Source: Eledone cirrhosa (lineage: Eukaryota). Taken from it: DNA of 64,000 nucleotides. The notes beneath the pieces are model-generated. The model was not told the DNA's origin, did no database searches, and was given only the letters and a program-made list of their open reading frames with translations. Each line of letters opens with the position of its first letter. Positions within the stretch are counted from its first letter, which is position 1. The stretch lies in NCBI GenBank assembly GCA_964016885.1, contig OZ024741.1:12338001-12402000 (forward strand), in the 5' to 3' direction. Position numbers and translations under genes: made by a program. This document shows, piece after piece, positions 18,001 to 63,018 of the stretch.

Positions 18001-18485
18001 GTGGTTAGAATGTCTCAGGAGGTCAGAGAGTCATTCCAGATAGAGCTGCTACTTCTCCGAATTGAGAGATCACAGCTCTGATATTAAGGGTATGTGGTTA
18101 GAATGTCTCAGGAGGTCAGAGAGTCATTCCAGATAGAGCTGCTACTTCTCCGAATTGAGAGATCACAGCTCTGATATTAGGGGTATGTGGTTAGAATGTC
18201 TCAGGAGATCAGAGAGTCATTCCAGGTAGAGCTGCGACTTCTCCGAATTGAGAGATCACAGCTCTGATATTAAGGGTATGTGGTTAGAATGTCTCAGGAG
18301 ATCAGAGAGTCATTCCAGATAGAGCTGCTACTTCTCCGAATTGGGAGATCACAGCTCTGATATTAAGGGTATGAGGTTAGAATGTCTCAGGAGATCAGAG
18401 AGTCATTCCAGATAGAGCTGCTACTTCTCCGAATTGGGAGATCACAGCTCTGATATTAAGGGTATGTGGTTAGAATGTCTCAGGA
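1..18485 (+). repeat. 93-bp tandem satellite (~199 copies, begins before window) derived from RTE-clade LINE ORF2
   Basis: Monomer AGAGATCACAGCTCTGATATTAAGGGTATGTGGTTAGAATGTCTCAGGAGATCAGAGAGTCACTCCAGGTAGAGCTGCTACTTCTCCGAATTG recurs every 93 nt. It translates EIRESLQVELLLLRIERSQL*Y*GYVVRMSQ. Confidence 0.97.
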
Positions 18486-18750: not shown

Positions 18751-18953
18751 TGCAATGTGAAGCTGGAGGGGAACGTCCTTCTTCAGTCGTGATACTATTG
18801 TCTTTATGTTACATCAATAAAGAAAACTATTTTTTTCAAAGTTAAATTATTTCTCCAGAACAATTATATACGGAAATAATTAGAGGCGTAACGTGTATTA
18901 CTGGTACCTATTTCATCGATATGAAATAGGATTGTGATAAGACCAGCTGAGAT

Positions 18954-19020
18954 AAGAAGGAGAAGAAGAAGAAGAAGAAGAAGAAGAAGAAGAAGAAGAA
19001 GAAGAAGAAGAAGAAGAAGA

Positions 19021-19072
<52 letters not shown>
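18954..19072. repeat. Compound (GAA)n(AAT)n microsatellite
   Basis: Direct reading. Confidence 0.97.
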
Positions 19073-19073
<1 letters not shown>

Positions 19074-22009: not shown

Positions 22010-25000
22010 CTATAGGCGCATGGTCAGAGTAGGCCCATTCACACGAGCCATTCTCGCCACATTCACCCACCTTTTAGCAAATGTACTGGGGGGCAGCACT
22101 TCTCTCTCCACCCTCACCCTCCTTTCCAGGTGAAACTTGAAGAAGTTGATGAGGGATTGGCCGAAGAGAAAAGTGTCTGTCTTTAGTCCTTTCAACCTGG
22201 TCCACCATATAATCTCTTTCGTAACTGCCACCAGACAGAGGAAAATGTCCTGCTCTTCCTGACCTAAGGAAGGTGGCGGCTCGATCTTCACTATGGACTC
22301 GGCCGATAGCCGGATTCGTTCCACACGCGACAGTAGCTGTTCGACATAACTCCACAAGTCAGTAATGCACGGACATTGGACAAGTGCCTGCAGAACGGTT
22401 TCGTCGTTCTGTGCGCATCTGGGGCAGGTCCGTCTGACAGCACTTCCGTGCCTGTAGAGTTTATCCCGAACCGGCAGTGCCCCCCCCGGTAGCACTGCCA
22501 AGCGAGGGATTTCTGGAAATTGTCCATCGTCCCCGGCTCAAAAGTCCTCCGGTACAGACTGGTCAGTTCGACTTCGTCGAGGCCCAAAGCTTCTCCGAGA
22601 GCGTCATCGCACTTGCCCACCACTAATCCTCTATAGAACTCGAGAGTGGAAGTTCCACTGATCGCATTGCCCGCTTGGTAGAGGGCAGTGAGTGCCTGGC
22701 AACATTCCAGGTGCCAGTCACCCAGTCTCGGTCTCTTCTTGACCCAGGACTGCAGCTCAGTCAAAGAAATGAGCTGCGGAAAGGCCCATCTGATAAACGG
22801 CGACCACACCTGTTCACTATTGAGGCAGAATATCTGGAGATGTCGCAGCCTCAACGCATGTCTGCGCATCATTAGCCACGGCATGCCCAGCCCTCCGCGT
22901 AGAGGGTGCTGGCAGCAGATGGACCGCCTCACCAACGGAACTTGTCCCCTCCACAAGAATTTGAAGAGGAGCCATTCCAACTTGACGAGGCGCGGACGGG
23001 GGCAAGGCACGACGGTTAGGCGGTAATAGATGACGGACGCGATGTACGCATTCGCCACCTCCGCGCGACCTTTCAGTGATAGCTTCCTCCCAGCCCATTT
23101 TTGGGTGAGACTGGCTACTCTGCTCGTTACCTCGTCCCAATTCCTTTCCACCTGGAGGTCTGGTCCGAACCAAACCCCGAGCAACTTTACTGGTCCGTCC
23201 GTCCAGCGCCCCACGACGCTGTTGGACGGCATGGGCTTGCCTCTCCAGGTTCCGAGCTGCAAGCCCACCGACTTTTCCGGGTTAAGTTTGGCTCCTGTCA
23301 ACCTTTCATATTCCTTCAATAAGGTGCCGACCACTTCGATTTCTGAGGTGTTCGCCACCATCACGGTGATGTCGTCCGCATAAGCCGACACCGCCCTTCC
23401 ACGTCCCGGTTCGAGCGGGATGCCCTGCAACAGCTCCAGCTTCCGCAGTAAAGGCTCGAGAGTCAATACGTACAGAAGGGAAGAGAGAGGGCACCCTTGA
23501 CGGACCGATCGGGAGAGCCGAAATGGTTCCGAGAGGTGGCGATTAACCTTGACCACCGAGCGTGTGCTGCTGTGCATTGTAACGATCCAGCTTCTAAAGA
23601 CAGGGCCGAAGCCAGCTGCTTTGAGGACAAACTCCAGATACCGATGGTCGACCCTATCGAATGCTTTCGATTGATCTAAACTGATCAGTGCCCCACCCCG
23701 AAGCCAGGTTTACACCCTACCCTCTCTATGATGTATCGCATGAGGTGGAGATTATCGTGTATGGACCTGGCTGGGATTGCGCAAGTTTGCGCCTCCCCAA
23801 CCAAATCCTCGACGACAAGCGCCAATCTCTTTGCTAACACCTTGGCCAAAATCTTAAACTCTGTGTTGAGCAGAGTTATGGGCCTGAAGTTGTCTAATGT
23901 ATCCCTCTTGTTCTCGTCTTTCCTTATCAGCATCACCACTCCCCTGCTCACAGAACTGGGAATACTCCCATTCTGCTGCCAGTTACAGTAGAGTGCTTCG
24001 AGGAGTTCGGAGAACAAGTCTGGCATATTTACGTAAAGCTCGTAGGGCAGGCCATCCAAACCGAGTGACTTGCGCCTCATGCAGCCGACAAGGGCGTCCT
24101 GAATTTCGGCTGAAGTAATCGGCCTTTCGCAGCGCTCAGCGTCGACCATCGAGATGCGCGGCAAGCCGTCAAGGTAGGGACTGAAATCCGCTACTCTCTC
24201 TGACTCGCCACTCTCCCCGAACAACCGAGCAAAGTGCTGGCGAAAGGCCTCACACATCCGCTTGGAATCGCTTATCTCGTGTCCGTCTCGGTCCGCCAAA
24301 GACCGAATTGTGGTTTTGTTACCACACTGCGCCTCCGCCACGCGGGCCCATCGAACAGCTTTAGTTCCCTCGTTTCTCAGCGCACGCGCCTTAGCTCTGA
24401 CAATGCAACCTTCGTGTTTGGCATTGAAGAAATGGTCTAATGCCATTCTCGTCGCTAGCACGTCAGTTGCGATGCCACTACAAATAGCCTCGTCTAACTT
24501 ATCTACCAGCTCCCCCTCCTTTCTATTTTTCTCTAACGCTAGTTCTTTGCTGAACTCTATCGAAGTTACTCTAATCTCTCTTTTGAGAGCCCCCCACCAT
24601 CTGTTGTTGATGATCCCCCTGTCAACTTTTGCTTAACTAACTTATTGACTGGGTCCCTGTAAGCCTTACGTGCCGGAAATGACATGTTCAGCTTCCAGTA
24701 ACCCGGTCCTAACCTACGCGTTTTATTTAGGTCGACCGTACAGATCACAAATTTGTGATCTGAATAGGCGACCGTTTTAAAAAGTAGACAGCCCACACTA
24801 TTTCTATCTATTTTCCTAATGAAGATTCTGTCTATATACGATCTAGATGACCCCATTCGGTTGGTCCATGTCCATACTGGCACATTTGGGGAAATCTAGT
24901 CGATACCTGTCAGACAGTTGGAACTGGCTGAGTAGGTGCTTGAGGCTTTTGCACCCCCCGCTCCTATCGGCTACTCCCACATAATCCCAGCGTGCGTCTA

Positions 25001-25436
25001 AGATGCCATTCCAGTCCCCCGCTAACAGTAAAGGGCGAGACGTACCCAGAAAGGTCTCCAGGCGCCTAAAGAAGTCAGGTCGTCCGGCCCCTGTAGGGGC
25101 GTAGACGGCCAGCAGTCTAAAGGCACCACCTTCGCTACTGCTCACATCCAAGACCACCAACTTACCGTCCGGGTCCCGGAAGATCGACCTTACCTCGAGA
25201 TCCAGTCCTTTCCTAAACAGCACTGCCACCCCACCCCCAATTCCCGGCCTGCTAACAGATGCGAAGATCTGATAGTCGTCGAAAATGGGGGCTAGTGCAC
25301 GTGTGTCGGAAATTCTGGTCTCGCTTACGGCAATCACATCCATTTCCAGCGACCGGAGGTCATTGAGCAGGCGACCCTGCTTCCAGGGTGACCCCAGGCC
25401 GCGAACATTTAAACTTCCTACTCTTAATATGGCCAT
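22010..25436 (-). pseudogene. Tx1 ORF2 (APE endonuclease + reverse transcriptase), several frameshifts
   Basis: SLNVRGL, VSET, GDWN, IDRIF, SDH (APE). GLDGLP, RPITLLN, QGCPLS, YADD (RT). CPRC...ETVLQALVQC. Confidence 0.9.
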
Positions 25437-25445
25437 ATTGGTAAG

Positions 25446-27437
25446 CTAAGAGAGAGAGAGGGAAGGTTTACTTACCTCCCGGGTCTTGTGAAGGTCGGGT
25501 GGTTCGACCTCCATGGTTGGTGGGGTTTCTTTTGGGAACCCCTTTAAAAGTCTTGATGTGGGTTTCACATTCGGGTTTCCCACGTCTTGAGGAAAGCTCT
25601 CTCGAATTTCTTTGAAGGAATTGAGTGACATTCGGACCAGAAGCAAATCTTCTGGCACGCAAAATGTGCTCATTTCAAAAATCTCCCCCTCTGTTTGAAT
25701 GTCCTCGCTTCGCGCTAAGAGGGCCATCAGTTTATCGTTGGCCCTTCTGACAAGCACAAAGTTTTTAACATTTTGTTGGTGTGGTTTTATTTGTTTTCGT
25801 TTTGGTGAAGGTGGTGGCGATGGTTTTGGTGGTGTTGTTTCGGGTATGTCTATGTTTGTTGTAGGTGTAGTGTCTGCAATTTCAGGTATTTGTGTGTTTA
25901 TTTGTACTTGTGTTTGTTTAGGTTGTTTGCGTTTCGGGGATTGTGGAGGTGGTGTCGATGTTGCTGATGGTGCTGATGTTATTGGGGAAGTGTTTGCGTT
26001 AGTGGTGTCTGTATTTTTTGTTGTGTGTGTTTTTGTGTTTTGTTGGGGCTTTTTTTTTTGTGAGTTTTCTCTGTTTTTTTGCACTTTTGGGTTTTCCTTC
26101 ATCTTCGCTGCTGGAAGACAAAGGGTCTGTGTCTGTGAGTGTCTCTGTGTCTGTGTGTGCGTTTATTTTTTTTTTGTCTATGTATATAGTTGGGGGGTGG
26201 GGGTAGGGGGAGTGGGAGAGCTTTCCTCGTTTTCTCCTTGGATTGGTTTTGGTGTTGGTGGTGATCCGTCTGCTTTTGATGTTGGTGTCCGTGTTTTTGT
26301 TGATGTTGTTTTTGGTGGTGGTGGTGGTGCAGCTTTCCGTGCTGACACTGGCGTTGGCAACAAAGGAGGTTTGCGACCCCCTGCATTTTTGCGCTGAGGG
26401 CAGAAGGCTTGAAGATGCGTGGCTTCCCCGCAAACGAAGCAGCGTGGCCTTCTTCCGTCAATCATTAGTTGGATTGTTGTCCCGTCCTGCAGGCGGGCAA
26501 AATCTGGGATGTTATTTATATCCTCCGGTTTCATTTGGAGAAGAATCTCCAAATCCATTCCGGACCAGTCATCTCTCTCTGTCCTTTTGATGTCCAGGAG
26601 GGTGGTGTCTGTCCCCTCCTCGATTACGCATCCCAGCAGCCACCATATGTTCATTCCTGGTGGGATGCTGGGAATGCGTACCTTCACTGTCCTTTTACCC
26701 ATATAGGACGGATGCATGATAATGCGTTCCGTTCTGCAGGGGATCACCGAGTGCTTAATAGCGAGGGCCTCGGATTTGAACAGTACCGAGATGGTACCGA
26801 ACTGTTTGCCTCTTGCTTTGTACTCTATGTTACTTCCGATGTACTCCAAAGCAGCCTCTACCTCTGCTTGGCTCACAAGTTCCACTTTTCGTGTCTGCAC
26901 CGAAATACATCGAAAGAGCACCGTCCTCCTTTGCATGGCCGCTATTGCCTCGTCCGTGATGGTCAGGTTTGCCCAGGACTTCTCCCGTTTAATTAGCCTC
27001 CACGCTTTGGCCAACTGTTCGTCTTTATCGCTAATATCAATATCGATATTCAATAAGCGCTTTGTTTTTGCTGCTGCTGCTGCAGCAAATGTGGTGTTTC
27101 TGATGCTCTTATTGTTGTTGTTGTCATTCTTGCTGTTGCCACCGCCATCCTTGTTTACATTGAAGCTGTCGGTGTTTTTGTCGTTATTGCTCTGAGTTGT
27201 TGTTGTTGTTGTGGTGGTGGTGGTGGTGGTGGCGGTGGTGGTGATGTCGTTTTCAGATGATACTGCTGCTATGCCAGAAGGTTGTGATGGTAGCTTTTTA
27301 GTTTTGCCTTCACATTCAGTAGAGTGGATGACAGGCATGACTGTAGCCGTCGTAGTCGTGGTGGTGAAATCTGCAGTGGCTGCCTTTAAACTTTTGACCT
27401 GAACGTTGTTTACCGTTTCAAGGTCGAAAATTTCCAT
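25446..27437 (-). pseudogene. Tx1 ORF1 (gag-like nucleic-acid-binding protein), frameshifted
   Basis: CFVCGEATHLQAFC zinc knuckle and Pro/Thr/Lys-rich tail. Frames 27437-26178, 26433-25999 and 26102-25446 appear to join at homopolymer runs. Confidence 0.8.
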
Positions 27438-27700
27438 AATTTTCTTTGGGTGGGGAAGCGATTTTTTTCGAAGATTTTAAAAAATAAATCTGAATATTCG
27501 GGCTTAAAGCCCGAATATTGAGAGGTATCCCTCTCTTTAAATCAAGATGTGTACCTTAAAAAAAAAACACTTTAAAACAGCTTAAAGCTACGAACCTTTT
27601 CCCCCCGCAGACTTGTCTGTCTTCACACATGTGCATGGAACAATTTATGATAATAATAATAATAATAAGAAGAAGAATGTTGGCCAGGAGAAGTTTCAAG

Positions 27701-31446: not shown

Positions 31447-34480
<3,034 letters not shown>

Positions 34481-34774: not shown

Positions 34775-37700
34775 TTACTACAGCCATACTACAGCTATAC
34801 TACAGCTATACTAGAGCTATACTACAGCCATACTACAGCTATACTACAGTTATACTACAGCCATACTACAGCTATACTACAGCTATACTACAGCTATACT
34901 ACAGCCATACTACAGCTATACTACAGCCACACTACAGCTATACCACAGCCATACTACAGCTATACTACAGCTATACTATAGCTATAATACAGCCATACCA
35001 CATCTATACTACAGCCATACTACAGCCACACTACAGCTATACCACAGCCATACTACAGCTATACTACAGCTATACTACAGCTATACTACAGCCATACCAC
35101 AGTCATACTACAGCTATACTATAGCTATACTACAGCCATACCACATCTATACTACAGCTATAATACAGCCACACTACAGCTATACCACAGCCATACTACA
35201 GCTATACTACAGCCATACTACAGCCATACCACAGCCATACTACAGCTATACTACAGCTATACTACAGCCATACTACAGCTACACTACAGCTATACTAAAG
35301 CTATACTACAGCCATACCACAGCCATACTACAGCTATACTACTGCTACACTACAGCAATACTACAGCTATATTACAGCCATACTACAGGTATACTTCAGC
35401 TATACTACCGCTATACTACAGCTATACTACAGCCATACTACAGCTATACTACAGCTATACTACAGTCATACTACAGCCATACCACAGCCATACTACAGCT
35501 ATACTAGAGCTATACTACAGCCATACTACAGCTACACTACAGCTATACTACAGCTATACTACAGCCATACCACAGCCATACTACAGCTATACTACAGCTA
35601 CACTACAGCTATACTACAGCTATACTACAGCGATACTACAGCTATACTACAGTCATACTACAGCTATACTACAGCCATACTACAGCCATAACTAAGCCAT
35701 ACTACAGCCATACTACAGCCATACTACAGCTATACTACAGCTACACTACAGCTATACTACAGCCATACTACATCTATGCTACAGCTATAATACAACCATA
35801 CTACAACGATACTACAGCTATACTACAGCTATACTACAGCCTTACTACAGCTATACTACAGCTATACTACAGCCCTACCACAGTCATACCACAGCCATAC
35901 TGCAGCATACTACAGCTATACTGCAGCTATACTATAGCTATACTACAGTTATACTACAGCCATGCTACAGCCCTACCACAGTCATGCTACAGCTATACAG
36001 CAGTTATACTACAGCTATACTACAGCTATACTACAACCATACTACAGCTATTCCACATCTATACTACAAACATACGACAGCTATACTACAGCTATACTAC
36101 AGCTATACTACTGCCATACTACAGCTATACTACATCTACACTACAGCTATACTACATACATACTACAGTTACACTACAGCTATACTACAGCCATACTACA
36201 GCTATACTACAGTCATACTACAGCTATACTACAACCATACTACAGCCATACTACAGCCATACTACAGCTATACTACAGCTACACTACAGCCATACTACAG
36301 CCATACTACAGCTATACTACAGCTATACTACTGTCATACTACAGCTATACTACAGCCATACTACAGCTATACTACAGCTACACTACATCTATACTACATC
36401 TACACTACAGCTATACTACAGCAATATTATAGATACACTACAGCTATACTACAACCATACTATAACCATACTACAGCCATGCTACAGCTATACTACACCT
36501 GCACTACAGCCATACTACAGCCATACTACAGCTATACTACAGCTACATTTCTGCTATACTACAGCTACATTTCTGCTATACCACAGCCATACTACAGCTA
36601 CACCACAGCAATACTACAGCTATACTACAGCCATACTACAGCCATACTACAGCTATACTACAGCCATACTACTGTCATACTACAGCTCTACTGCAGCTAT
36701 ACTACCGCTATACTACAGCTATACTACAGCCATACTACAGCTATACTACAGCTATACTACCGCTATACTAGAGCTACACTACAGCTACACTACAAGTATA
36801 CTACAGCTATACTACAGCCATACTACAGCTATACTACAGCCATACTACTACCATACTACAGCTATACTACAGCTATATTACAGCCATACTACAGCTATAC
36901 TGCAGTTATACTACAGCTACACTACAGACATACTTCAGCTATACTACAGCCATACTACAGCTATACTACAGCTATATAACAGTCATACTACAGCCATACT
37001 ACAGTCAAACTACAGTTATACCTCAGTCATATTACAGTTATACTACAGCTATACTACAGCTATACTAACGCTATACTACAGTCATACTACAGTCATACTA
37101 CAGTTATACTACAGCTATACTACTGCCATGCAACAGCTATACTACAGCCATACTACAGCTATACTACAACTATTCTGCCGCTATTCTACAGTCATACTAC
37201 ATCCATACTACAGTCATACTACAGCTATACTACTGTCATACTACAGCTCTACTACAGCAATACTACAACCATACTACAGCTATACTACAGTTAAACTACA
37301 GCTATACTACTGTCATACTACAGCTATACTACAGCCATACTACAGCTATACTATAGCCATAACACAGTCATACTACAGCCATACTACAGCTATACTACAG
37401 CAATACTACAGCTATATTATAGCCATAACACAGCCATACTACAGTCATACTACAGCTATACTACAGCCATACTACAGCTATACTACAACTATCCTACAGC
37501 TATACTACAGCCATACTACAGCGATACTAAAGCGATACTACAGCAATACTAAAACTAAAGCAATACTAAAGCAATACTACAGTCATACTGGAGCTATACT
37601 ACAGCAATACTACAGCTATACTACAGCTATATTACATCTATACTACATCTACACTACAGCTATACTAGGGCCATACTACAGCTATACTACAGCCATACTA

Positions 37701-40362
37701 GAGCTATACTACAGCCATACTACAGCCATACTACAGCTATACTACTGTCATACTACAGCTATATTGAAGCTATACTACAGCTATAATACTGTCATACTAC
37801 AGACATACTACTGCAGCTATACTACAGCTATACTTCTGTCATACTACAGCTCTACTGCAGCTATGCTACAGCTATACTACAGTCATACTACAGCAATACT
37901 GCAGCAATACTACAGTCATACTACAGCCATGCTGCAGCCATTCTACAGACATACTACAGCAATACTACAGCAATACTACAGCTATACTACAGCTAAACTA
38001 CAACCATACTACAGCTATACTACAGCTATATTACAGCCATACTACAGCTATACTGCAGTCATACTACACCTATACTACAGCCATACTACAGATATACTAC
38101 AGCCATACTACAGCTATACTACAACCATACTACAGCTATACTACAGCCATACTGCACATATACTGCAGCCATACTACAGCTATACTAGAGCTATATTACT
38201 TCTATACTACATCTACACTACAGCTATACTATAGTCATACTACAGCTACACTACCGCCATATTACAACCATACTTCATTCATACTACAGCCATACTACAG
38301 CTATACCACAGCTATACTACTGTCATACTACAGCTGTACTACAGCCATACTACAGCTATACTACATCTATACTACATCTACACTAGAGCTATACTACAGC
38401 CATACTATAGAGACACTACAGCTATACTACAACCACACTACAGCCATACTACAGCCATACTACAGCTATACTACAGCTACACTACAGCCATAATACAGCC
38501 ATACTACAGTCATACTACAGTCATACTACAGGTATACTACAACTAAACTACTGTCTTACTACAGCTATACTACAGCCATACTACAGCTATACTACAGCCA
38601 TACTACCGCCATACTACTGCTAAACTGCAGCTATATTATAGCCATAACACATTCATACTACAGCCATACTACAGCTATACTATTGCTATATTACATCTAT
38701 ACTACATCTACACTACAGCTATACTACAGCCATAATAACGCTACACTACAGCTATACTACAGCCATACTACAGCTATGCTACAGTCATACTACAGTTATA
38801 CTACAACCATACTACAGGCCATACTACAGCCTTACTACAGCTATAATACAGCTACACTACAGCCATACTACAGCCATACTACAGCTATACTACAGCTATA
38901 CTACTGTCATACTACAGCTATACTACAGCCATACTACAGCTATACTACAGCTATACTACATCTATACTACATCTACACTACAGCTATACTACAGCCATAC
39001 TATCACTACACTACAGCTATCCTACAATAATACTACAGCCTTACTACAGTCATACTACAACTCTACTACAGCTGCAATACAGTCATACTACAGCCATACT
39101 ACAGCCATACTACAGTCATACTAAAGTCATACTACAGCTATACTACAGCTATATTACTGTCATACTACAGCTATACTACAGCTATACTACAGCCATACTA
39201 CAGCTATACTACAACCATACTGCAGCTATACTACAGTCATACTAGAGCCATACTACAGTCATACTAGAGTTATACTACTGTCATACTACAGCTATATTAC
39301 AGCTATACGACAGTCATACTACAGCTATACTATAGCCATAACACAGTCATACTACATTCATATTACAGTTATACTACAGCCATACTACAGCTATACTACA
39401 ACCATACTACAGCTATATTATAGCCATAACATAGTCATACTACAGTCATACTACATGTATACTACAGCCATACTACAGCTATACTACAACTATCTTACAG
39501 CTATACTATAGCCATACTACAGCGATACTACAGCAATACTACAGTCATATTACAGCCATACTACAGCTATAATACAGCCATACTAGAGCTATACTACAGC
39601 TATACTACAGCTATACTACAGCCATACTACAGCTATACTACAGCTATACTCCAGCTATACAATAGCCATACTACAGCCATACTACAGCTATACTAGAGCT
39701 ATACTACAGCCATACTACAGCCATACTACAGCCATACTACAGCTATACTACAGCCATACTACTGTCATATTACAGCTCTACTGCAGCTATACTACAGCTA
39801 TACTACAGTCATACTAGAGCCATACTGCAGCCATATTACAGTCATACTACAGTCATAATATAGCCATACTACAGCCATACTGCAGCCATACTACAGCCAT
39901 ACTACAGTCATACTACAGTCATACTATAGCCATACTACAGCCATACTGAAGCCATACTACAGCCATACTACAGTCATACTACAGTCGTACTATAGCCATA
40001 CTACAGTCATACTACAGCCATACTACAGCCATACTATAGCCATACTGCAGTCATACCACAGTCATACTGCAGCTATAATACAGCCATACTACAGCTCTAC
40101 TACAGCTATAATATAGCCATACTACAGCTATAATACAGCTATAATACAGCCATACTGCAGTCATACTGCATCCATACTGCATCCATACTACAGCTATACT
40201 ACAGCCATACTACAACCATACTACAGCTATACTACAGCAATACTACAACAATACTACAACCATACTACAGCTATAATACAGTCATACTGCAGCCAAACTG
40301 CAGCCATACTGCAGCCATACTGCAGCCATACTACAGCCATACTACAGCCATATTACAACCAT
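34775..40362. repeat. 11-bp minisatellite (CAGCTATACTA / CAGCCATACTA), ~500 copies
   Basis: Direct reading. The YYSYTTAILQ ORFs are artefacts of the repeat. Confidence 0.97.
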
Positions 40363-43232: not shown

Positions 43233-43239
43233 GTTTACA

Positions 43240-43421
43240 GCCCTATACATTCTGAGTTCAAATCTCACTGAGGTGAACTTTGCCTTTCATCCTTACGAGG
43301 TCGATAAAATAAAGTACCAGTCACTCACTGAGGTCGTTTTATCGACCCCCACCCCACCACCACCACCACCAAATTGCTGCCCTTGTGCCTATATAAGAAA
43401 CCATTATTATTATTATTATTA
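43240..43421 (+). mobile_element. tRNA-derived SINE, 5'-truncated
   Basis: B-box-like GAGTTCAAATC, core GCCTTTCATCCTTACGAGGTCGATAAAATAAAGTACCAG (resembles Deu/Nin-type central domains), (TTA)n tail. Confidence 0.85.
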
Positions 43422-43626
43422 TTGGCAGGATCGGTAGAGTGTCGGACGCCATGCTTTGCAGCATAGAGTTACGCCCCTTTACGGTCTGAGTTCAAATCCT
43501 GCCGAGGTTAACTTTGCCTTTCATCCTTATGTGGTCGATAAAATAAAGTACCAGTAATACACTGGGATAATTGCTGGCCTTGTGCTAAAAATAGAAACAA
43601 TTATTATTATTTTTTTTTTTTTTTTA
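43422..43626 (+). mobile_element. tRNA-derived SINE
   Basis: A-box-like TGGCAGGATCGG, B-box GAGTTCAAATCC, same core, (TTA)n/poly-T tail. Confidence 0.85.
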
Positions 43627-44825: not shown

Positions 44826-45410
44826 CACGAGGTGGGTCAGAAAAGTTCCAGGACTGATATCATATTTCAAATCCAAACTTCACACTAAGAGTTTTCTCCT
44901 TCAAAGTAATCCCCCTGGAGTCTAATGCACTTTTCCATCCTTTTATGCCACGCTTGCATGCACTCCTGGAAGGATTCTTCCGGGATCCTCCGCAGTTCCG
45001 TCGTCACGGCCTTTTTGATGTCATCCATGTCTTCAAAACGGGTCTCCCCCTGGTCGTACTCGAAGATACATGAGTCATCACTGGTGATGACTGTCCCTAG
45101 CAAGTCTGGTTCGGTTTCAAGACGCTCGAGGATGTCCTGCCACACTTGCATGCGTCGACCCTTCTGGTCATCGTTCAGCAGTTTTGACACCATCTTCGCG
45201 CAGACTTTCCGCATGTCCAAATCTTCAGTGAGAATCTTCCAGACACTGTCCCGATTCATGCTCAGCTCATTTGCCATCAGTCGAACAGTCAGCCGACGAT
45301 CGCTACGCGCCATCTGCCTGACACGCTCAACGTTGACGTTGACCTCAGTCCTGGTTGTTGAGGGCCTTCTGCTCCTGGGGTCATCTTCCACATCCTCGCG
45401 TCCTTCTTAA
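44826..45410 (-). mobile_element. Mariner transposon remnant with internally deleted transposase
   Basis: DDPRSRRPST, SDRRLTVR, RKVCAKMVSKLL, VITSDDSCIFEYD fused to RFEDMDDIK...CIRLQGDYFE. TIR-like CACGAGGTGGGTCAGAAAAGTTCCAGGACT next to TA at 44826. Confidence 0.9.
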
Positions 45411-51921: not shown

Positions 51922-52060
51922 AATATAAATATATATATATATTTATAAGTTGAAAAAAATGAAAACGAAATTTCATTTCTCACTCTTAGTATTGCACTTA
52001 CTTAAATGTAAGTATGTGTGTATACGTACATACATATATGTATACAGACGTACAGTAGCA

Positions 52061-52146
<86 letters not shown>

Positions 52147-52309
52147 TACATATATACATACAGGTACACATACATATATGCACGCATCAGTGTAGCGGAC
52201 GCTTATTATAACGCCGCTTTGTTCGTTTGTCAACAAACTGAACAGCCTGAATTTATGCCATACGGTGTTAAGGCAACCACGTCACCTTTTGGTTCAACAC
52301 TGACACAGG

Positions 52310-52354
52310 AACGATGTACTAGTTTCAAGCTTGTTAGCTATCATCAGCACCGTT
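52310..52354 (-). ncRNA. Minimal type I hammerhead ribozyme
   Basis: Exact reverse complement of 52822-52866. Confidence 0.85.
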
Positions 52355-52519
52355 TACCCATCTGCCAGATAGTTGAACGTTCGAAAGTATATACTTAACA
52401 CCGTATGGCATAAATTCAGGCTGTTCAGTTTGTTGACAAACGAACAAAGCGGCGTTATAATAAGCGTCCGCTACACTGATGCGTGCATATATGTATGTGT
52501 ACCTGTATGTATATATGTA

Positions 52520-52587
<68 letters not shown>

Positions 52588-52821
52588 TGCTACTGTACGT
52601 CTGTATACATATATGTATGTACGTATACACACATACTTACATTTAAGTAAGTGCCATACTAAGAGTGAGAAATGAAATTTCGTTTTCATTTTTTTCAACT
52701 TATCGTTTTCGGTATGCCTGACCGATTTAACTCACTCAATATGCAAATTAGGCTGCTCAGCCGTTAATTTTCATAAGGAAAGTATATACTTTCGAACGTT
52801 CAACTATCTGGCAGATGGGTA

Positions 52822-52866
52822 AACGGTGCTGATGATAGCTAACAAGCTTGAAACTAGTACATCGTT
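52822..52866 (+). ncRNA. Minimal type I hammerhead ribozyme
   Basis: AACGGTG-CTGATGA-T-AGCT-aaca-AGCT-T-GAAA-CTAG-TA-CATCGTT. 7-bp stem I and palindromic ACTAGT stem III. Confidence 0.85.
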
Positions 52867-52970
52867 CCTGTGTCAGTGATGAACAAAAAGGTGACGTGGT
52901 TGCCTTAACACCGTATGGCATAAATTCAGGCTGTTCAGTTTGTTGACAAACGAACAAAGCGGCGTTATAA

Positions 52971-54020
52971 TATTCTGTGTCTTTTATATCGGTAATTTAA
53001 TTTATTCGGTCCTCAATGTTGCCATTGACTGACCAACGGTTAAAAACACAGATACAATATAGACACAAACACATATATATAGTTTATCAAAGTTCTCTCG
53101 TTGCACATCTGCAGCATCGTCAGTGGTGCTATTGTTTCTATGTATTTTCTACGCCATCTTTATTTAGTCTGTTTATATATATATATATATATATTTTTTT
53201 TTGTCTCCTTTGCGCATGCGTTTGCGTGTGTGTATAGTGTTTTGTTTGATGTGTGTTCGTGATTGGGTGACTGTGTATTGGTTAATGTATTCTATCTTTA
53301 CTAGTGTGTGTTTATATGTGTTTGTTGTTATTGTGCTTGTGTATGTATTTATTTATTTATTTTTTCTATTTATTTATTTATTTATTTATACTTCTCTTAA
53401 GTCAGTGTTGTTTGTTTGAGTGTTGTTGTTATTCCATTCATTTTTTCTGTTTAGCCTTGGCCTTCTAAGTTCTATTTCACTGGCCTCTCTGATTTGCCTA
53501 TCTGCTGGGTCATTTCTATGTTTAGATATTATTCTAATTTCTATGTTGTCTATGTTACCGTGGTGTTGTTGTCTGGCATGTTCGTATAGTACTGAACCTT
53601 TTTTTCGTCCTTTTAGTTGCCCCCAGTGTTGGTCAATCCTTTCACCTATGGTACGAGCTGTCTCGCCTATGTATGTTGTTGTCATATTTCTGCAAGTACC
53701 CTCTGTACATCTTATGCTATAGACTACGTTTCTAGTTTTACAGTTTATCCGGGGGTTTACCTTACATATAATACATTTCCTATTAGTACAGTGGGTTTTC
53801 TTAAGAAAACCCACTTTTGACCGTTGGTCAGTCAATGGCAACATTGAGGACCGAATAAATTAAATTACCGATATAAAAGACACAGAAGCGAGAAGCGAAA
53901 ACCAACGAAACAGTGAGTGTGTTCTGTTATTAATTATGGCAATATTACACAAATATGACCCTCCCCAAGTATAACAATATTTGTTTCAACACACGATTTC
54001 ATATCAAAAACCTCGCAAAA
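52971..54020 (-). mobile_element. 5'-truncated Penelope-like element with inverted pLTR
   Basis: GIY-YIG ORF, degenerate hammerhead at ~53085-53127 (minus strand), and inverted arms 52973-53044 / 53815-53887. Confidence 0.88.
53386..53792 (-). CDS. Penelope-type GIY-YIG endonuclease C-terminal fragment
   Basis: CTNRKCIIC...NCKTRNVVYSIRC...YIGETARTIGERIDQH...YEH...RQIREASEIELRRPRLN. Confidence 0.9.
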
Positions 54021-54235
54021 CTATATATATATATATATATACAGTACATGCATAAATATACAAATACACACACAAACATATATAATATATATATATATAT
54101 ACATGTAAAGTTATATTTAAAATTGTTGGGTTACAACTAGTAAATATTTATAACTGATATAAAAGCACTCGACAAATATTTGGAGTATATTTACAATATT
54201 AAATAAATGGAAAACTATATTTATAAAACCATATT

Positions 54236-54301
54236 TATTTCATTATATATATTTCGGGGATATCATATTAACAATATGCTATGCCTTCATCAGACAAAAT
54301 A
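54236..54301 (-). ncRNA. Type I hammerhead ribozyme
   Basis: Reverse complement of 54742-54807. Confidence 0.75.
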
Positions 54302-54741
54302 CAATATAAACAGTTTTATAGATAAATATATTCGACATACCGTAATAAACATCAACTTCATTTGAAGAGGTTCACTCTAGCAGTGAAAATACAGAGAGAA
54401 AGAAAGAGAGAGACTACCTAATTTTTCTATATCTATATTTATATATGTATCTATCTCTATTTCCTCTCTCTCTCTATATATATATATATCTCTTTCGGTC
54501 TCTTTACATGAAGCTCTTCGCTTTATCTATTTTTCCATCTCTCTATTTTGTCCCATTCATTTCTTCTTTTTCTTCTTTTTCTTCCTTTTCTTCGTTTTGT
54601 CTTTCTTTCTTTCTTATTTCCCTCTTTTCTCTCTCTTTTTCTTTCTCTCTGTATTTTCACTGCTAGAGTGAACCTCTTCAAATGAAGTTGATGTTTATTA
54701 CGGTATGTCGAATATATTTATCTATAAAACTGTTTATATTG

Positions 54742-54807
54742 TATTTTGTCTGATGAAGGCATAGCATATTGTTAATATGATATCCCCGAAATATATATAA
54801 TGAAATA
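54742..54807 (+). ncRNA. Type I hammerhead ribozyme
   Basis: TATTTTGT-CTGATGA-AGGCATAGCATATT-gtt-AATATGATATCCCC-GAAA-TATATA-TA-ATGAAATA. Confidence 0.75.
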
Positions 54808-54845
54808 AATATGGTTTTATAAATATAGTTTTCCATTTATTTAAT

Positions 54846-54903
<58 letters not shown>

Positions 54904-54914
54904 ATATTTTTCAG

Positions 54915-55152
54915 GGTATGTCAATATTTATTTATTTATAAAACTAATCTATATTATATTTTATCTCATGAAAACGCACCATAATCTGCCTTGGTGGCCC
55001 TTGAAATATGTATAATTAAATAAATATGGTTTTATAAATATAGTTTCCATTTGTTAATATATTGTATATTTACTCCAATAATTTGTTGAGTTCTTTACAT
55101 CAGTTATAAAAAGATTTTGCTTGTTGTATCCCAACAAATTAAATATAACCTC

Positions 55153-55157
<5 letters not shown>
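54915..55157 (+). mobile_element. Diverged copy of the same pLTR family with a mutated hammerhead (54957-55022)
   Basis: Aligns with 54702-54851 and the reverse complement of 54101-54190. Core reads CTCATGA...CACCA/TGGTG...GAAATATGTATA. Confidence 0.7.
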
Positions 55158-55231
<74 letters not shown>

Positions 55232-55375
55232 ATATATATATATATATGTGTAGGAGGTGAGTTTTATTGTAGTACAATAAAGCAATGCAGATATCGGATA
55301 AGTAGCAATCTACAGTTTGTAGGACTGGAGTATAAATAATATATAAGATCAAAAGATGGTTAAAAGAGTTCCATG

Positions 55376-55445
55376 TATTTTATTATGCGCATTTCAAAAA
55401 CAAATATCATCATGGATAACATTTGCGTTTTCGTCAGATAAAATA
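55376..55445 (-). ncRNA. Type I hammerhead ribozyme
   Basis: Mirror of 55564-55633. Confidence 0.85.
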
Positions 55446-55563
55446 GGGAGACATGATATGAAGGTTAAAAAACACTTGTGAATAGTGCAGTTTTAAATCA
55501 ACATATGTTGATTTAAAACTGCACTATTCACAAGTGTTTTTTAACCTTCATATCATGTCTCCC

Positions 55564-55633
55564 TATTTTATCTGACGAAAGCGCAAATGTTATCCATGAT
55601 GATATTTGTTTTTGAAATGCGCATAATAAAATA
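55564..55633 (+). ncRNA. Type I hammerhead ribozyme
   Basis: TATTTTAT-CTGACGA-AAGCGCAAATGTTATC-cat-GATGATATTTGTTTTT-GAAA-TGCGCA-TA-ATAAAATA. Perfect 8-bp stem I and palindromic ATGCGCAT stem III. Confidence 0.87.
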
Positions 55634-55673
55634 CATGGAACTCTTTTAACCATCTTTTGATCTTATATATTAT

Positions 55674-55910
55674 ATATATATATATATGTGTGTACGTATC
55701 TTGGTGTGCATGTCTATATATATCTGTGTGTCTGTATGTATGCATGTATGCATCTATATCTGTATGTGTGTATATGCATGTATATATGTATGTATGTGTG
55801 TATGTATGTATGTATGTATGTATCTATGTATGTATGTATGTGTGTATGTATGTGTCTATGTGTGTATGTATGTGTCTATGTGTGTGTGTATGTATGTGTG
55901 TGTGTGTTTG
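55674..55910. repeat. (TATG)n/(TG)n microsatellite
   Basis: Direct reading. Confidence 0.9.
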
Positions 55911-55996: not shown

Positions 55997-57100
55997 CAAC
56001 ACCCCACCCAACCTCTTCCACCCTACCTCCACTCACCCCACTCCCACTCCACCCCACCAACACCCACCCCACCACCACCCACCCCACCACCACCCACCCC
56101 ACAAACACTCCACCCACACATAACCCAGCCCCACAACCACTCCACCCAACCAGCACCCTCCCCACAACCACTCCACCTACCACCGCCCACCCCACCAACA
56201 CTCCACCCCACCACCACCCACCCCACCACCACTCCACCCAACCATCACCCTCCCCACAACCACTCCACCTACCACCGCCCACCCCACCATCACTCCACCC
56301 CACCATCACTCCACCCCACCACCACCCACCCCACCACCACTCCACCCAAACAGCACCCACCCCACAACCACTCCACCCAACTATCATTCACCCCACCATC
56401 ACTCCACCCAATACCCACCCCACCCAACACCAGCCGACCACTACACAACCTTAGCCCCAACCCATATACACCACTACTACAATTCGACACTTACATACCC
56501 ACCACCACCACCACCAGCACCATTAAACACTCCCCCCATAGCCTCCACCACCACCACCACCACCACCACCACCACCACCACCATAACACACTCACCCCGT
56601 AGCCTCCACCACCACCATCACCACCAGCACCTTTTACACACGCCCCCCATTGCCTCCAACACCACCAACACCACCATAACACACTCCCCCCGTAGCCTCC
56701 ACCACCACCAGCACCATTACACACGCCCCCTATAGCCTCCAACACCACCACCACCACCATTACACACACCCCCATAGCCTCCAACACCACCACCACCACC
56801 ACCATAATACACTCCCCCCATAGCCTCCAACACCACCACCACCATTACACACTACCCCATAGCCCACAACACCACCACCACCACCATTACACACTCCCCC
56901 CATAGCCTCCAACACCACCACCACCACCAACATTACACACTACCCCATATCCTCCAACACCACCACCACCAACACCATTACACACTCCCCCATAGCCTCC
57001 AACACCACCACCACCACCAGCACCATTACACATCTCCCCCATAGCCTCCAACACCACCACCACCACCACCATTACACACTCCCCCCATAGCCTCCAACAC
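55997..57100. repeat. C/A-rich low complexity followed by a ~40-50-bp minisatellite
   Basis: ACCATTACACACTCCCCCATAGCCTCCAACACCACCACC repeated from ~56500. Confidence 0.85.
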
Positions 57101-60100
57101 CACCACCACCACAACCAACACCACCACAACCAACACCACCTCAACCAACACCACCACCACCACCACCACAATCAACACTACAACCAACACCAGCACAACC
57201 AACACCACCACAACCAACACCACCAAAACCAACACCACTACAACCAACACCACCACAACCAACACCACCACAACCAACACCACCTCAACCAACACCACCA
57301 CCACCACCACCACAACCAACACTACAACCAACACCATCACAACCAACACCAGCACAACCAACACCACCACAACCAACACCACTACAACCAACACCAGCAC
57401 AACCAACACCACTACAACCAACACCACTACAACCAACATCACCACAACCAACACCACCACAACCAACACCACTACAACCAACACCACTACAACCAACACC
57501 ACCACAACCAACACCACCACAACCAACACCACTACAACCAACACCACTACAACCAACACCACCAAAACCAACACCACTACAACCAACACCACCACAACCA
57601 ACACCACCTCAACCAACACCACCACAACCAACACAACCACAACCAACACCACTACAACCAAGACCACCACAACCAACACCACCTCAACAAACACCACCAC
57701 AACCAACACCACCACAACCAACACCACTACAACCAACACCACCACAACCAACACCACCACAACCAACACCTACTACAACCAACACCACAACCAACACCAT
57801 CTCAGCCAACACCACTACAACCAACACCACCTCAACCAACACCACCACAACCAACACCACTACAACCAACACCTACTACAACCAACACCACAACCAACAC
57901 CACCACAACCAACACCTACTACAACCAACACCACAACCAACACCACCACAACATCAACATCAACAACCACCATCACCACAACCAACACCACTACAACCAA
58001 CACCCCAACCAACACCACCACAACCAACACCACTACAACCAACACCACAACCAACACCACCTCAACCAACACCTACTACAACCAACACCACAACCAACAC
58101 CACCTCAACCAACACCACTACAACCAACACCACCACAACCACCATCACCACAACCAACACCACTACACCAACACCACAGCCAAACCCACCACCACCACCA
58201 CTACCACCACCATTACCACGATTACCACCAACACCACCACCACTACCACCACCACACCACCACCATCACCACTAACACCACCACAACCAACACCACCACA
58301 ACCAACATCACCACAACCAACACCACCACAACCAACACCACCACAACCAACACCACCACAACCAACACCACCACAACCAACACCACCACAACCAACACCA
58401 CTACAACCAACACCACCACAACCAACACCACCTCAACCAACACCACCACAACCAACACTACCACAACCAACACCACTGCAACCAACACCACCACAGCCAA
58501 CACCACTACAACCAACGCCACCACAACCAACACCACCACAACCAACACCACTACAACCAACACCACCACAACCAACACCACCACAACCAACACCACTACA
58601 ACCAGCACCACAACCAACACCACCACAACCAATACCACCACAACAACAACATCAACATCAACAACTACCACCACCATCACCACAACCAACACCACTACAC
58701 CAACACAACAACCAACACCACCACAACCAACACCACTACAAACAACACCACCACAACCAACACCACCACAACCAACACCACCACAACCAACACCACCACA
58801 ACCAACACCACTACAACCAACACCACCACAACCAACACCACTAACACCACTACAACCAACAGCACCACAGCCAACACCACTACAACCAACACTACCACAA
58901 CCAACACCACTACAACCAACACTACCACAACCAACACCACTACAACCAACACCACCACAACCAACACCACTACAACCAACACCACTACGACCAACACCAC
59001 CACAAGCAACACCACTACAACCAACACCACCACAACCAACACCACCACAACCAACACCACCACAACCAACACCACTACAACCAACACCACTACAACCAAC
59101 ACGACCATAACCAACACCACCACAACCAACATCACCACAACCAACACCACCACAACCAGCACCACTACAACCAACACCACCACAACCAACACCACTACAA
59201 CCAACACCACCACAAACAACACCACCACAACCAACACAACCACAACCAACACAACCAGCACCACTACAACCAACACCACCACAACCAACACCACTACAAC
59301 CAACACCACCACAACCAACACCACCACAACCAACACCACCACAACCAACACCACTACAACCAACACCACCACAACCAACACCACTACAACCAACACCACC
59401 ACAACCAACATCACTACAACCAACACCACCACAACCAACACCACTACAACCAACACCACCACAACCAACACCACCACAACCAACACCACCACAACCAACA
59501 CCACCACAACCAACACCACCACAACCAACACCACCACAACCAACATCACTACAACCAACACCACCACAACCAACACCACCACAACCAACATCACCACAAC
59601 CAACACCACCACAACCAACACCACCTCAACAAACACCACCACAACCAACACCACCACAACCAACACCACTACAACCAACACCACCACAACCAACACCACC
59701 ACAACAAACACCACCACAACCAACACCACCACAACCAACACCACTACAACCAACACCACCACAACCAACACCACCACAACAAACACCACCACAACCAACA
59801 CCACCACAACCAACACCACTACAACCAACACCACCACAACCAACACCACTACAACCAACACCACCACAATCAACACCACCTCAACAAACACCACCACAAC
59901 CAACACCACCGCAACCAAGACCTACTACAACCAACACCACCACAATCAACACCACCTCAACAAACACCACCACAACCAACACCACCACAACCAACATCAC
60001 TACAACCAACACCACCACAACCAACACCACCACAACCAACATCACCACAACCAACACCACCACAACCAACACCACTACAACCAACACCACTACAACCAAC

Positions 60101-61960
60101 ACCACCACAACCAACAACACCACAACCAACACCTACTACAACCAACACCACAACCAACACCACCTCAGCCAACACCACTACAACCAACACCTACTACAAC
60201 CAACACCACAACCAACATCACCACAACCAACACCACCACAACCAACACCACTACAACCAAACCACTACAACCAACACCACCACAACCAACACCACCACAA
60301 CAAACACCTACTACGACCAACACCACAAACAACACCACCTTAACCAACAGCACTACAACCAACACCACCTCAACCAACACCACCACAACCAACACCACCA
60401 CAACCAACATCACCACAACCAACACCACCACAACCAACACCACTACAACCAACACCACTACAACCAACACCACCACAACCAACATCACCACAACCAACAC
60501 CATTACAACCAACACCACTACAACCAACAACACCACAACCAACACCACTACAACCAACACCACCACAACCAACACCACCTCAACCAACACCACCACACCC
60601 AACACCACCACAACCAACATCACCACAACCAACACCACCACAACCAACACCACTACAACCAACACCACTACAACCAACACCGCCACAACCAACATCACCA
60701 CAACCAACACCACCACAACCAACACCACTACAACTAACACCACTACAACCAACAACACCACAACCAACACCACTACAACCAACACCACCACAAGCAACAC
60801 CACTACAACCAACACCTACTACAACCAACACCACAACCAACACCACCACAACCAACACCTACTACAACCAACACCACAACCAACACCACCACAACCAACA
60901 CCACTACAACCAACACCTCAACCAACACTACCACAACCAACACCACTACAACCAACACCACAACCAACACCACCTCAACCAACACCTACTACAACCAACA
61001 CCACAACCAACACCACCTCAACCAACACCACTACAACCAACACCACCACAACCAACACCACTACAACCAACACCACCACAACCAACACCACCACAACCAA
61101 CACCACCACAACCAACACCACTACAACCAACACCACCACAACCAACACCACTACAACCAACACCACCACAACCAACACCACCTCAACCAACACCACCACA
61201 ACCAACACCACCACAACCAACACCACTACAACCAACACCACCACAACCAACACCACCACAACCAACACCACCACAACCAACACCACTACAACCAACACCT
61301 CAACCAACACCACCACATCCAACACCTACTACAACCAACACCACAACCAACACCACCTCAGCCAACACCACCACAACCAACACCTACTACAACCAACACC
61401 ACAACCAACACCACCTCAACCAACACCTACTACAACCAACACCACAACCAACACCACCACAACCAACACCTACTACAACCAACACCACCTCAGCCAACAC
61501 CACCTCAACCAACACCACTACAACCAACACCTCAACCAACACCACCACAACCAACACCACTACAACCAACACCTCAACCAACACCACCACAACCAACACC
61601 ACTACAACCAACACCTCAACCAACACCACCACAACCAACACCACTACAACCAACACCACCACAACCAACACCACCTCAACCAACACCACCACAACCAACA
61701 CCTACTACAACCAACACCACAACCAACACCACCTCAGCCAACACCACCACAACCAACACCTACTACAACCAACACCTCAACCAACACCACCTCAACCAAC
61801 ACCACTACAACCAACACCACAACCAACACCACCTCAACCAACACCTACTACAACCAACACCACAACCAACACCACCTCAACCAACACCACTACAACCAAC
61901 ACCACCACAACCACCATCACCACAACCAACACCACTAAACCAACACCACAACCAAACCCA
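57100..61960. repeat. 15-bp minisatellite (ACCAACACCACCACA / ACCAACACCACTACA)
   Basis: Direct reading. The poly-V/L ORFs are artefacts. Confidence 0.96.
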
Positions 61961-63018
61961 CCACCACCACCACTACCACCACCATTACCACCATTACCAC
62001 CAACACCACCACCACTACCACCACCACACCATAACCACCACCACTAACACTACCACGACCACCACCACAACCATTACCACTACCACCACTACCACCACCA
62101 CCACCAACACCACCACCATTCCTACCATCATCAACTCCACCACCACTAACAATACCCCCCCTCCACCACCACTATCACTACCACTACAGTTATGATGTTC
62201 CCTCCCCTTCTCTCCAGGCCTACACACCACCGCCACCACCAACTCCCAGCACACAGCGCCCCCATAAATGTAAGCAATTAATCACCATCACCATCACCAT
62301 TATCACCATTGTTACAACCATCCTAACTACCACACAAGCAACACCACTACTGCCACCTATAATCTCAACAATCACCACCATCACCACCATCACCATCACC
62401 ACCACCACCATCACCACCACCACCGACAACACCATCACCATCACCACCACCACCATCACCACCACCACCGACAACACCATCACCATCACCATCACTACTG
62501 CCACCTATAATCTCAACAATCACCACCATCATCATCACCACCACCACCATCACCGACAACACCATCACCATCACCATCACTACTGCCACCTATCATCTCA
62601 GCAATCACCACCATCATCACCACCATCACCATCACCACCACCACCACCACCACCAACAACAACAACAGAATCACCAAAACCATCACTACTGCCACCTATA
62701 ATCTCAACAATCACCATCATCACCACCACTACCACCACCACCACCATCACCACCACCGACAACACCATCACCATCACCATCACTACTGCCACCTATAATT
62801 TCAACAATCACCACCACCACCACCGCCATCACCACTACCACCACCATCACCACTATCGTCAAGAAGAAGAAGAACCGGGAAAAGGAAGAGGAAAAGGGAA
62901 AGAAAGATGAACAACAGAAACGACAACGACGACAACAACAACAATGATAACAACAACAACGATAACAACAACGACGGCAACAACAACAACAACAACAACG
63001 TCAACGACAGCAACATCA
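61960..63018. repeat. (ACC/ATC/AAC) low complexity with a recurring CACTACTGCCACCTATAATCTCAACAATC unit
   Basis: About 5 copies between 62345 and 62810. Confidence 0.85.

Follow-up and report, generated by a model that had tools for sequence, protein, structure and literature searches.

Several hammerhead motifs, apparently built on the same plan except for their stems II, lie side by side in the 64,000-nt stretch of DNA analysed here (the window, hereafter). Are they independent ribozymes held to one shape by selection, or related parts of something larger? An earlier note, made from the letters of the DNA, had described three of them on the plus strand, with a shared stem I, a palindromic stem III, an AUA cleavage triplet and a hairpin in the position of stem II, and had attributed them to one hammerhead family. 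These motifs are all present as described (A, 54742-54807; B, 54957-55022, with the core CTCATGA; C, 55564-55633), and two inverted twins on the minus strand (54236-54301 and 55376-55445) bring the total to five. Our reading, which we consider probable, is that these type I hammerheads belong to the 3' ends of three stacked, 5'-truncated insertions of sister Penelope-like elements (PLEs) and are cut rarely, as predicted dimers, in the transcripts of the source elements.

In hammerhead A, stem I (54742-54749 with 54800-54807) encloses the core (54750-54756), a stem II at 54757-54787 with an A.C first pair and an unpaired C54760 opposite C54784, then GAA at 54788-54790 and the palindrome at 54791-54798, with the predicted cut after A54799. 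Its minus-strand twin is identical in sequence, with the predicted cut between 54244 and 54243. Hammerhead C has the core CTGACGA at 55572-55578, stem II at 55579-55613 (unpaired C55582 opposite U55610), the palindrome at 55617-55624 and the predicted cut after A55625; its twin differs at a single position, 55428, and would be cut between 55384 and 55383. Hammerhead B, with its unpaired C54975 opposite C54999, is decayed: G5 is C at 54967, the third stem II pair is broken at 54974 and a U.U stands in stem I at 55017. The core order CUGANGA...GAAA...NUH is thus intact in four of the five motifs, B being the exception by its G5 to C change. An AATAAA is present at or just after the cut site. By eye, stem I may extend by about 7 bp past a one-base bulge in lineages A and B (54734-54741 with 54808-54814), and past a 6-nt bulge in lineage C.

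The attribution to one family stands, since a covariance model built from family members (40 of them, including three of the five window motifs) recovers exactly these five in the 64-kb window, at 63-74 bits, the next match scoring 18.5. The Rfam hammerhead models gave no match to the five motifs at E<=10, in scans of the window and of 52.2-55.7 kb, although such a match is not what defines a type I hammerhead.

What carries these motifs? We regard it as practically certain that they are PLE 3' ends. Elsewhere in the genome, each motif type is found 0.8-1.9 kb 3' of a frame coding for RT plus GIY-YIG, or of its endonuclease end (loci L176-L180 for lineage A1; L059-L061 and L064 for C; L181, L188 and L190 for B, that is, 3 of the 15 extended B loci, where the B-type end follows a related Hydra-type endonuclease). 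L176 is a tandem with a unit of 3,969 nt and an ORF of 736 aa, and in L060 a frame of 821 aa lies about 1 kb upstream of a C-type motif; judged by their motifs, both have the single ORF with RT and C-terminal GIY-YIG of an EN+ PLE upstream of the hammerhead, and the tandem or inverted pLTRs, the 5' truncation and the optional tail of such elements are found as well. Identity to the A1 protein is 73% for the B fragment (only the C-terminal part of the lineage B protein was recovered), 52% for C and 41% for the endonuclease of a second group of motifs (L274). Between endonucleases, the lineages of 54742 and 54957 are 72-73% identical and that of 55564 46-52%.

The proteins contain RWR or RWT, DKT, CNCR....C (CxCx5C), and CxxC and CxH around a conserved E and N, with no CCHH. 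An RWK-like motif with DKT, the CxCx5C linker, and CxxC/CxH around E and N are diagnostic of the Hydra clade (PMC8557442), and on a comparison by eye with the alignment published there (section 11 and supplement) we assign the elements to this clade. Pfam, run on 13 frames, gave no RT or GIY-YIG match for the A and C frames. The Hydra-clade preference for (TA)n is also found: a run of (TA)>=4 lies within 220 nt of 163 of the 171 sampled motifs with enough flank, against 1040 of 3000 and 70 of 375 control windows. The distance to (TA)n has two peaks, at 30-50 and 120-140 nt, and the insertions stop at (TA)n some 40 or 130 nt past stem I, frequently in the form of inverted pairs.

The locus itself can be read as three insertions with (TA)n between neighbours, which bears out the idea of separate insertions that landed next to each other. 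Insertion A follows a TA-rich microsatellite (54022-54101). Its left arm (54102-54413, minus strand) comes from the 3' end of a lineage A1 element, inverted and truncated on the 5' side; it bears the long terminus, or tail, at 54102-54185, and over 312 nt it shows 99.7% identity with the corresponding end of the full-length L176 element. The right arm (54414-54850, plus strand) consists of 437 nt of 3' UTR/pLTR with the short terminus, ends in (TA)n, and is 97.3-97.5% identical to L176 and 99.5% to L140. Over 54630-54850, all 40 scored copies are 100% identical after rounding. The (TA)n at 54850-54899, a likely target site, leads to insertion B (54907-55155, plus strand), a 5'-truncated 3' end of sister lineage B1 with the long terminus, 94-97% identical to the 39 nearest scored copies; a 13-nt AT-rich stretch at 54896-54908 may, weakly, be its inverted stub. 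After another (TA)n (55156-55247) comes insertion C, of which the left arm (55248-55504, minus strand, lineage C) has its long terminus at 55248-55330, a tail also present in other lineage C copies, and is 98-99% identical to its nearest copies; its identity to the full-length L060 element, at the 3' end, is 91.8%. The right arm of C (55505-55678, plus strand) has the short terminus and forms with 55331-55504 a 348-nt palindrome, that is, an inverted repeat of 174 nt; the corresponding repeat of insertion A measures 228 nt (54186-54413 with 54630-54857), and both are 99% complementary. To judge by these identities, A and C are young and B is older; the TA tracts on either side of B were thus probably the landing sites of A and C. 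The published layout of PLEs likewise includes an inverted, truncated copy and, at one end, a tail (PMC8557442, PMC3846280).

Two observations on the arms may be added. An ACTC...GAGT motif, which might form the base of a hairpin between the two termini, is common to the tails of all three lineages, A, B and C (54102-54185 and 55248-55330 in the window), and something similar lies just before the start codon of the tandem element (L176:4620-4770); we regard it as a candidate RT start or protein-binding site. In the B-lineage loci L087-L115, substitutions private to an insertion were found in both of its arms at 7 of 16 loci (8 such substitutions, about 0.6 being expected from sharing between loci), which suggests that a single template gave rise to the two arms, or that one arm was converted by the other.

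Are the stems II really unrelated, as the earlier note had it? We do not think so. What it had quoted as differing entirely were the upper hairpins; lower down, the stems can be aligned, and this basal part is common to all three motifs, which follow the same plan of three basal pairs, an unpaired C and an upper stem. The DNA around 54742 and 54957 is 78.5% identical over 340 nt, and in an alignment of 40 motifs, hand-picked from 177 distinct ones to span the types, we found intermediates between the A and B stems, and these fall into their clades on a tree made only from 82 nt of flanking sequence (a rough tree, from a short alignment). Eight of the nine stem II pairs change on both sides. 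Pairing holds in 95.0% of stem II cells, compared with 87.7% after shuffling (reached in none of 500 shuffles), and the covariation score is 0.362, compared with 0.228 (again none of 500) and with 0.035-0.158 in slid registers; this shuffle ignores the relatedness of the sequences, and two of the five measures, the counts of double-change pairs (116/500) and of pair types (294/500), do not rise above it. RNAalifold, given no structural input, recovers stem I and five stem II pairs. Stem II has diverged stepwise, by compensatory changes around the unpaired C. None of the eight stem I pairs changes on both sides within the first group (the search pattern fixed much of this stem), but from the first group to the second this stem does vary on both sides; stem III is self-complementary in all 23 representatives, including A-U/G-C changes at positions left free in the search.

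Counts over the 3.0-Gb genome tell where selection may have acted. With a pattern that fixes stem I, the core and the ends of stem III and leaves stem II free, motifs with a pyrimidine at core position 7 give 61,589 exact matches (reversed-pattern control, 0) and those with a purine another 9,233, in amplified subfamilies; the related second group, defined by a different stem I closing pair, gives 22,195 (control, 382). The model trained on the first group finds the second-group motifs at 27-42 bits in 7 of 8 loci, L258 being weak at 18 bits. Position 7 is a tolerant position of the hammerhead, and here all four bases occur at it in amplified subfamilies. G5 is essential to the hammerhead; matches with another base there number 890, or 1.4% of the intact count, and are scattered over all lineages among the 100 matches listed. 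These counts need the rest of the motif to be intact, so that a lineage losing the motif wholesale would be invisible in them. A free position 7 and scattered G5 mutants argue for selection on the source elements, and not at the window locus, with neutral decay of the copies afterwards, a scheme that fits the counts. The earlier note is thus half right in its interpretation: the structure-level selection that it put forward is supported by the covariation of stem II, but would have acted on the source elements before insertion and not in this place, and the stems and subfamilies are not independent. The same G5 mutation is found in both arms of some insertions (L090, L112, L113), and opposite-strand pairs with the same G5 mutation number four among the 100 matches listed; a core-dead RNA may thus have been inserted at least once.

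The CTCATGA core of 54957 is confirmed as a mutation (G5 to C), and the copy is probably dead, as had been proposed. Against the column majority of 46 arms it carries these three substitutions only (54967, 54974, 55017), and we take it for an older, decayed copy. Among 45 arms whose cores were matched in the 30 nearest loci, 36 are intact, 6 read CTCATGA and 3 have other changes; the six come from four loci, a class favoured by the use of 54957 as query. We considered a dead CTCATGA subfamily and rejected it, as the four loci share no other substitution.

The unpaired C in stem II deserves attention of its own, the more so as the fourth base of this stem was left free in every search pattern that collected motifs. 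All 40 aligned motifs have C at this position (no step on the tree, compared with 2-6 for its neighbours), as do 170 of the 177 distinct ones, and the partner is C, U or A. Among 23 representatives drawn from the two groups, position 4 never pairs (0/23), whereas position 3 always does (23/23, as G-C, A-U, U-A or G-U) and position 5 nearly always (21/23); a scan of the second group gave C.C in 30 of 31 rows, two of the rows being first-group copies. Genome-wide, a base other than C is found 2,413 times and a closed C-G pair 249 times, with patterns slightly looser than that of the 61,589 matches, and both kinds of variant are scattered over subfamilies among the 100 matches listed for each. 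We saw no C.C/C.U mismatch of this kind in the hammerhead tables of PMC8557442 (File S2) or in the consulted part of those of the PMC4209133 supplement, and our searches of the openly accessible literature on type I hammerhead stems II, including the consulted part of PMC3088659, gave no precedent. Position 4 sits where loop II lies in canonical type I ribozymes, which by analogy suggests a tertiary or protein contact. One may go further, tentatively, and see here a distinct subtype in which the invariant unpaired C, as a 1x1 C.C/C.U loop, is a cleavage switch (through docking with stem I in place of the loop II contact, or through binding of the RT-endonuclease), with ribozyme activity required for Penelope amplification in vivo and not for a single insertion; we think this rather doubtful. 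If true, the about 90,000 genomic copies would amount to a natural mutational scan of the need for a ribozyme in amplification. In any case, the unpaired C is one conserved non-catalytic feature that is open to mutation.

How would such hammerheads work? The earlier note had predicted cleavage by 54742 and 55564, which we find doubtful for isolated monomers and for read-through RNA of the locus. Stem III is not stable in the monomer, with P(A15.1-U16.1) at 0.001-0.002, and in the youngest lineage, A1, the first stem II pair is A.C, the predicted fold is weak and the probability of stem I is 0.05. In a read-through RNA of the locus, the sense motifs are predicted to pair with their twins over their whole lengths of 66 and 70 nt, so no activity is expected here. 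Dimers are another matter: self-duplexes of the 8-nt palindrome are predicted at -2.2 to -10.5 kcal/mol. We propose that same-strand hammerheads of a tandem copy (such as L176) pair through these palindromes, possibly with the assistance of the protein that the element encodes, and that two cuts would release a unit-length RNA of 3,969 nt with a 187-nt leader before the 736-aa ORF. Reverse transcription would start downstream of the 3' hammerhead, uncut or religated, as the inserted copies keep an intact motif with 40-130 nt beyond it. Lineages that lose the core would not amplify, and the window copies would be by-products, with no expected function where they are. Metazoan PLE hammerheads, whose cleavage in vitro is weak, have been suggested to work as such dimers (PMC4209133), and AUA is a natural but slower triplet (PMC1636495). 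In Poseidon_Ac, cleavage needs the protein, unprocessed RNA is the main substrate, and there are two internal RT start sites (PMC11167929), which the two termini of our insertions match. We lean towards a role of cleavage in the spread of these elements.

The role of the hammerhead in PLEs is debated, and published views run from the processing of tandem RNA to mere parasitism. It could be, in particular, that the elements are as we describe them and catalysis is dispensable, the motif being kept as a protein-binding fold, through overlapping signals such as AATAAA, or as a passenger. This explanation is clearly the less probable one, in our opinion, and yet it has serious arguments: in Poseidon_Ac, the only PLE that has been tried in vitro, catalytic mutants did not affect insertion, its cleavage depends on protein, and no RNA-seq reads ended at its cut site (PMC11167929), while the Naiad PLEs thrive without canonical hammerheads, their authors raising parasitism (PMC8557442). 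In our own data, the G5 mutations common to paired arms and the sequence of stem I, fixed within the first group (in part by the search pattern), go in the same direction. A mere protein-binding fold or passenger would not, however, lead one to expect variation that tracks catalytic tolerance, position 7 being free and G5 not, nor a stem I that changes on both sides between groups and a stem III that stays palindromic. A young and very large family, with intact coding copies, this contrast between position 7 and G5 and the conserved unpaired C, makes a good test system.

The other explanations concern what the motifs are, and we find them much weaker. That independent subfamilies with unrelated stems II were held to one shape by selection, possibly in a meaningful local cluster, is improbable. 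The upper stems II of the three motifs do look dissimilar, and different lineages do lie close together: in a sample of the first 100 matches of contig 1 (68 insertions, with lineages labelled by eye), 8 pairs are within 2.6 kb of each other, for 1.6 expected if uniform (P=0.009; about 0.03 with local nulls), and 4 within 1.5 kb, for 0.9 expected (P=0.047; about 0.1). But the flanks and proteins are homologous, stepwise intermediates link the stems, and the three insertions differ in age; the clustering is modest (local P of 0.03-0.11) and expected from a shared (TA)n target, and the locus itself is ordinary transposon stacking. A non-autonomous retrozyme or SINE-like family without a coding parent is more improbable still. 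It would account for the short, non-coding window copies, and retrozyme-like tandem hammerhead repeats of other families do occur in this genome, with units of 310 nt (L065:205-1177) and 469 nt (L275:4574-5981). The sequences studied here, however, run into full RT-EN elements (at 99.7% for A; L176, L060), their 5' ends vary, and in place of short non-coding tandem units we find inverted, truncated ends of coding elements. As to chance matches in AT-rich sequence, or palindromic assembly artefacts suggested by the near-perfect inverted repeats, we can hardly give them credence: a descriptor search of 51.9-56 kb gave 6 matches (four of the five window motifs and a neighbouring pair from another family), against a mean of 0.001 and a maximum of 1 in 1000 dinucleotide shuffles, the reversed-pattern control is about as empty, and inverted pairs recur genome-wide with an asymmetric tail, 28 of the 68 sampled insertions carrying two or more motifs. 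We therefore return to the stacked 3' ends of sister PLEs as the preferred reading.

The neighbourhood contains other repeats. Another hammerhead family, with a GUA triplet, a 6-nt palindrome, 7 bp in stem I and 4 bp in stem II, is present at 52822-52866 (plus strand) and 52310-52354 (minus strand), in a complex inverted insertion at about 51945-52972, for which we found no parent element; Rfam HH9 matches this pair at E=0.5, and similar motifs occur in 6 other loci among those extracted from the genome. At 52973-54020 lies the truncated, inverted 3' end of another PLE family, which we take to be Neptune-like, with ORFs of more than 1,000 aa with asparagine-rich inserts and 37,371 candidates. 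Its ORF at 53386-53859 (minus strand) has a C-terminal GIY-YIG, although Pfam gives no RT or GIY-YIG match for this frame; we rejected the fragment as a parent of our motifs, for blastp relates it to neither the A nor the C proteins, and it is not consistently linked with the motifs. At about 53095-53125 (minus strand), the 3' UTR of this PLE includes a hammerhead core that has a 6-bp stem II, but stems I and III are not evident. Farther away are a 93-nt satellite (1-18485; 198 copies, 93% matches), a frameshifted RT element (18925-21515, plus strand; Pfam RVT_1), presumably LINE-like elements (22010-27476 and 31734-34468, both minus strand), what we assume to be a SINE-like repeat (43235-43564) and a mariner-like fragment (44885-45406, minus strand), and long arrays of 11-nt and 15/45-nt tandem repeats with strong strand skew (34776-40357 and 56499-62853).

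We found no account of these families in the literature on octopus and cephalopod hammerheads (Repbase and Dfam may already hold them), and the consulted part of PMC13282606 does not mention ribozymes. Much of what we see is, on the other hand, familiar. Variable, covarying PLE hammerheads with a palindromic stem III and inverted pairs have been known since 2014 (PMC4209133), and those of the Hydra clade were described in 2021 (PMC8557442). Our elements resemble the latter in the C-terminal GIY-YIG, in RW, DKT, CxCx5C, CxxC and CxH, in the (TA)n target, in the 3' type I hammerhead with a short palindromic stem III, and in the inverted truncated copy and tail. They differ from them in unit length (3,969 nt, compared with under about 3 kb) and in tail length (about 85 nt, compared with 30-40), and none of the 26 Hydra-clade hammerhead rows of File S2 shows the stem I or the 3-bp-plus-C.C stem II of the window family (PMC8557442). 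Poseidon_Ac of Anolis also has two termini past the hammerhead (a tail), an AT-rich target and intact inserted hammerheads, but it belongs to another clade, and its ORF starts inside the hammerhead and not 187 nt after the cut site (PMC11167929). The animal non-LTR retrozymes have type I hammerheads related to PLE pLTRs as well; those are short non-coding tandem units, whereas the window copies are truncated ends of coding elements (bioRxiv 10.64898/2026.07.22.740005).

A further parallel is offered by the metazoan PLE min-hammerheads, which sit in pLTRs, form many covarying consensus families per genome, have a long stem II, a palindromic stem III and predicted dimers, and occur as opposite-strand pairs 100-700 bp apart; with the D. 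willistoni row, the window family shares its 8-nt palindrome and its AUA layout (PMC4209133). Their G10.1-C11.1 pair with an extra nucleotide is not conserved here, where A-U is commonest and A.C and U.U occur, and the window family has in addition an 8-bp stem I and the conserved C.Y mismatch. It also counts more than 70,000 exact matches, compared with about 9,000 in Xenopus tropicalis, the highest figure noted from that work (PMC4209133). What sets the window family apart from these known systems is its copy number, its clear selection pattern and its unexplained conserved mismatch.
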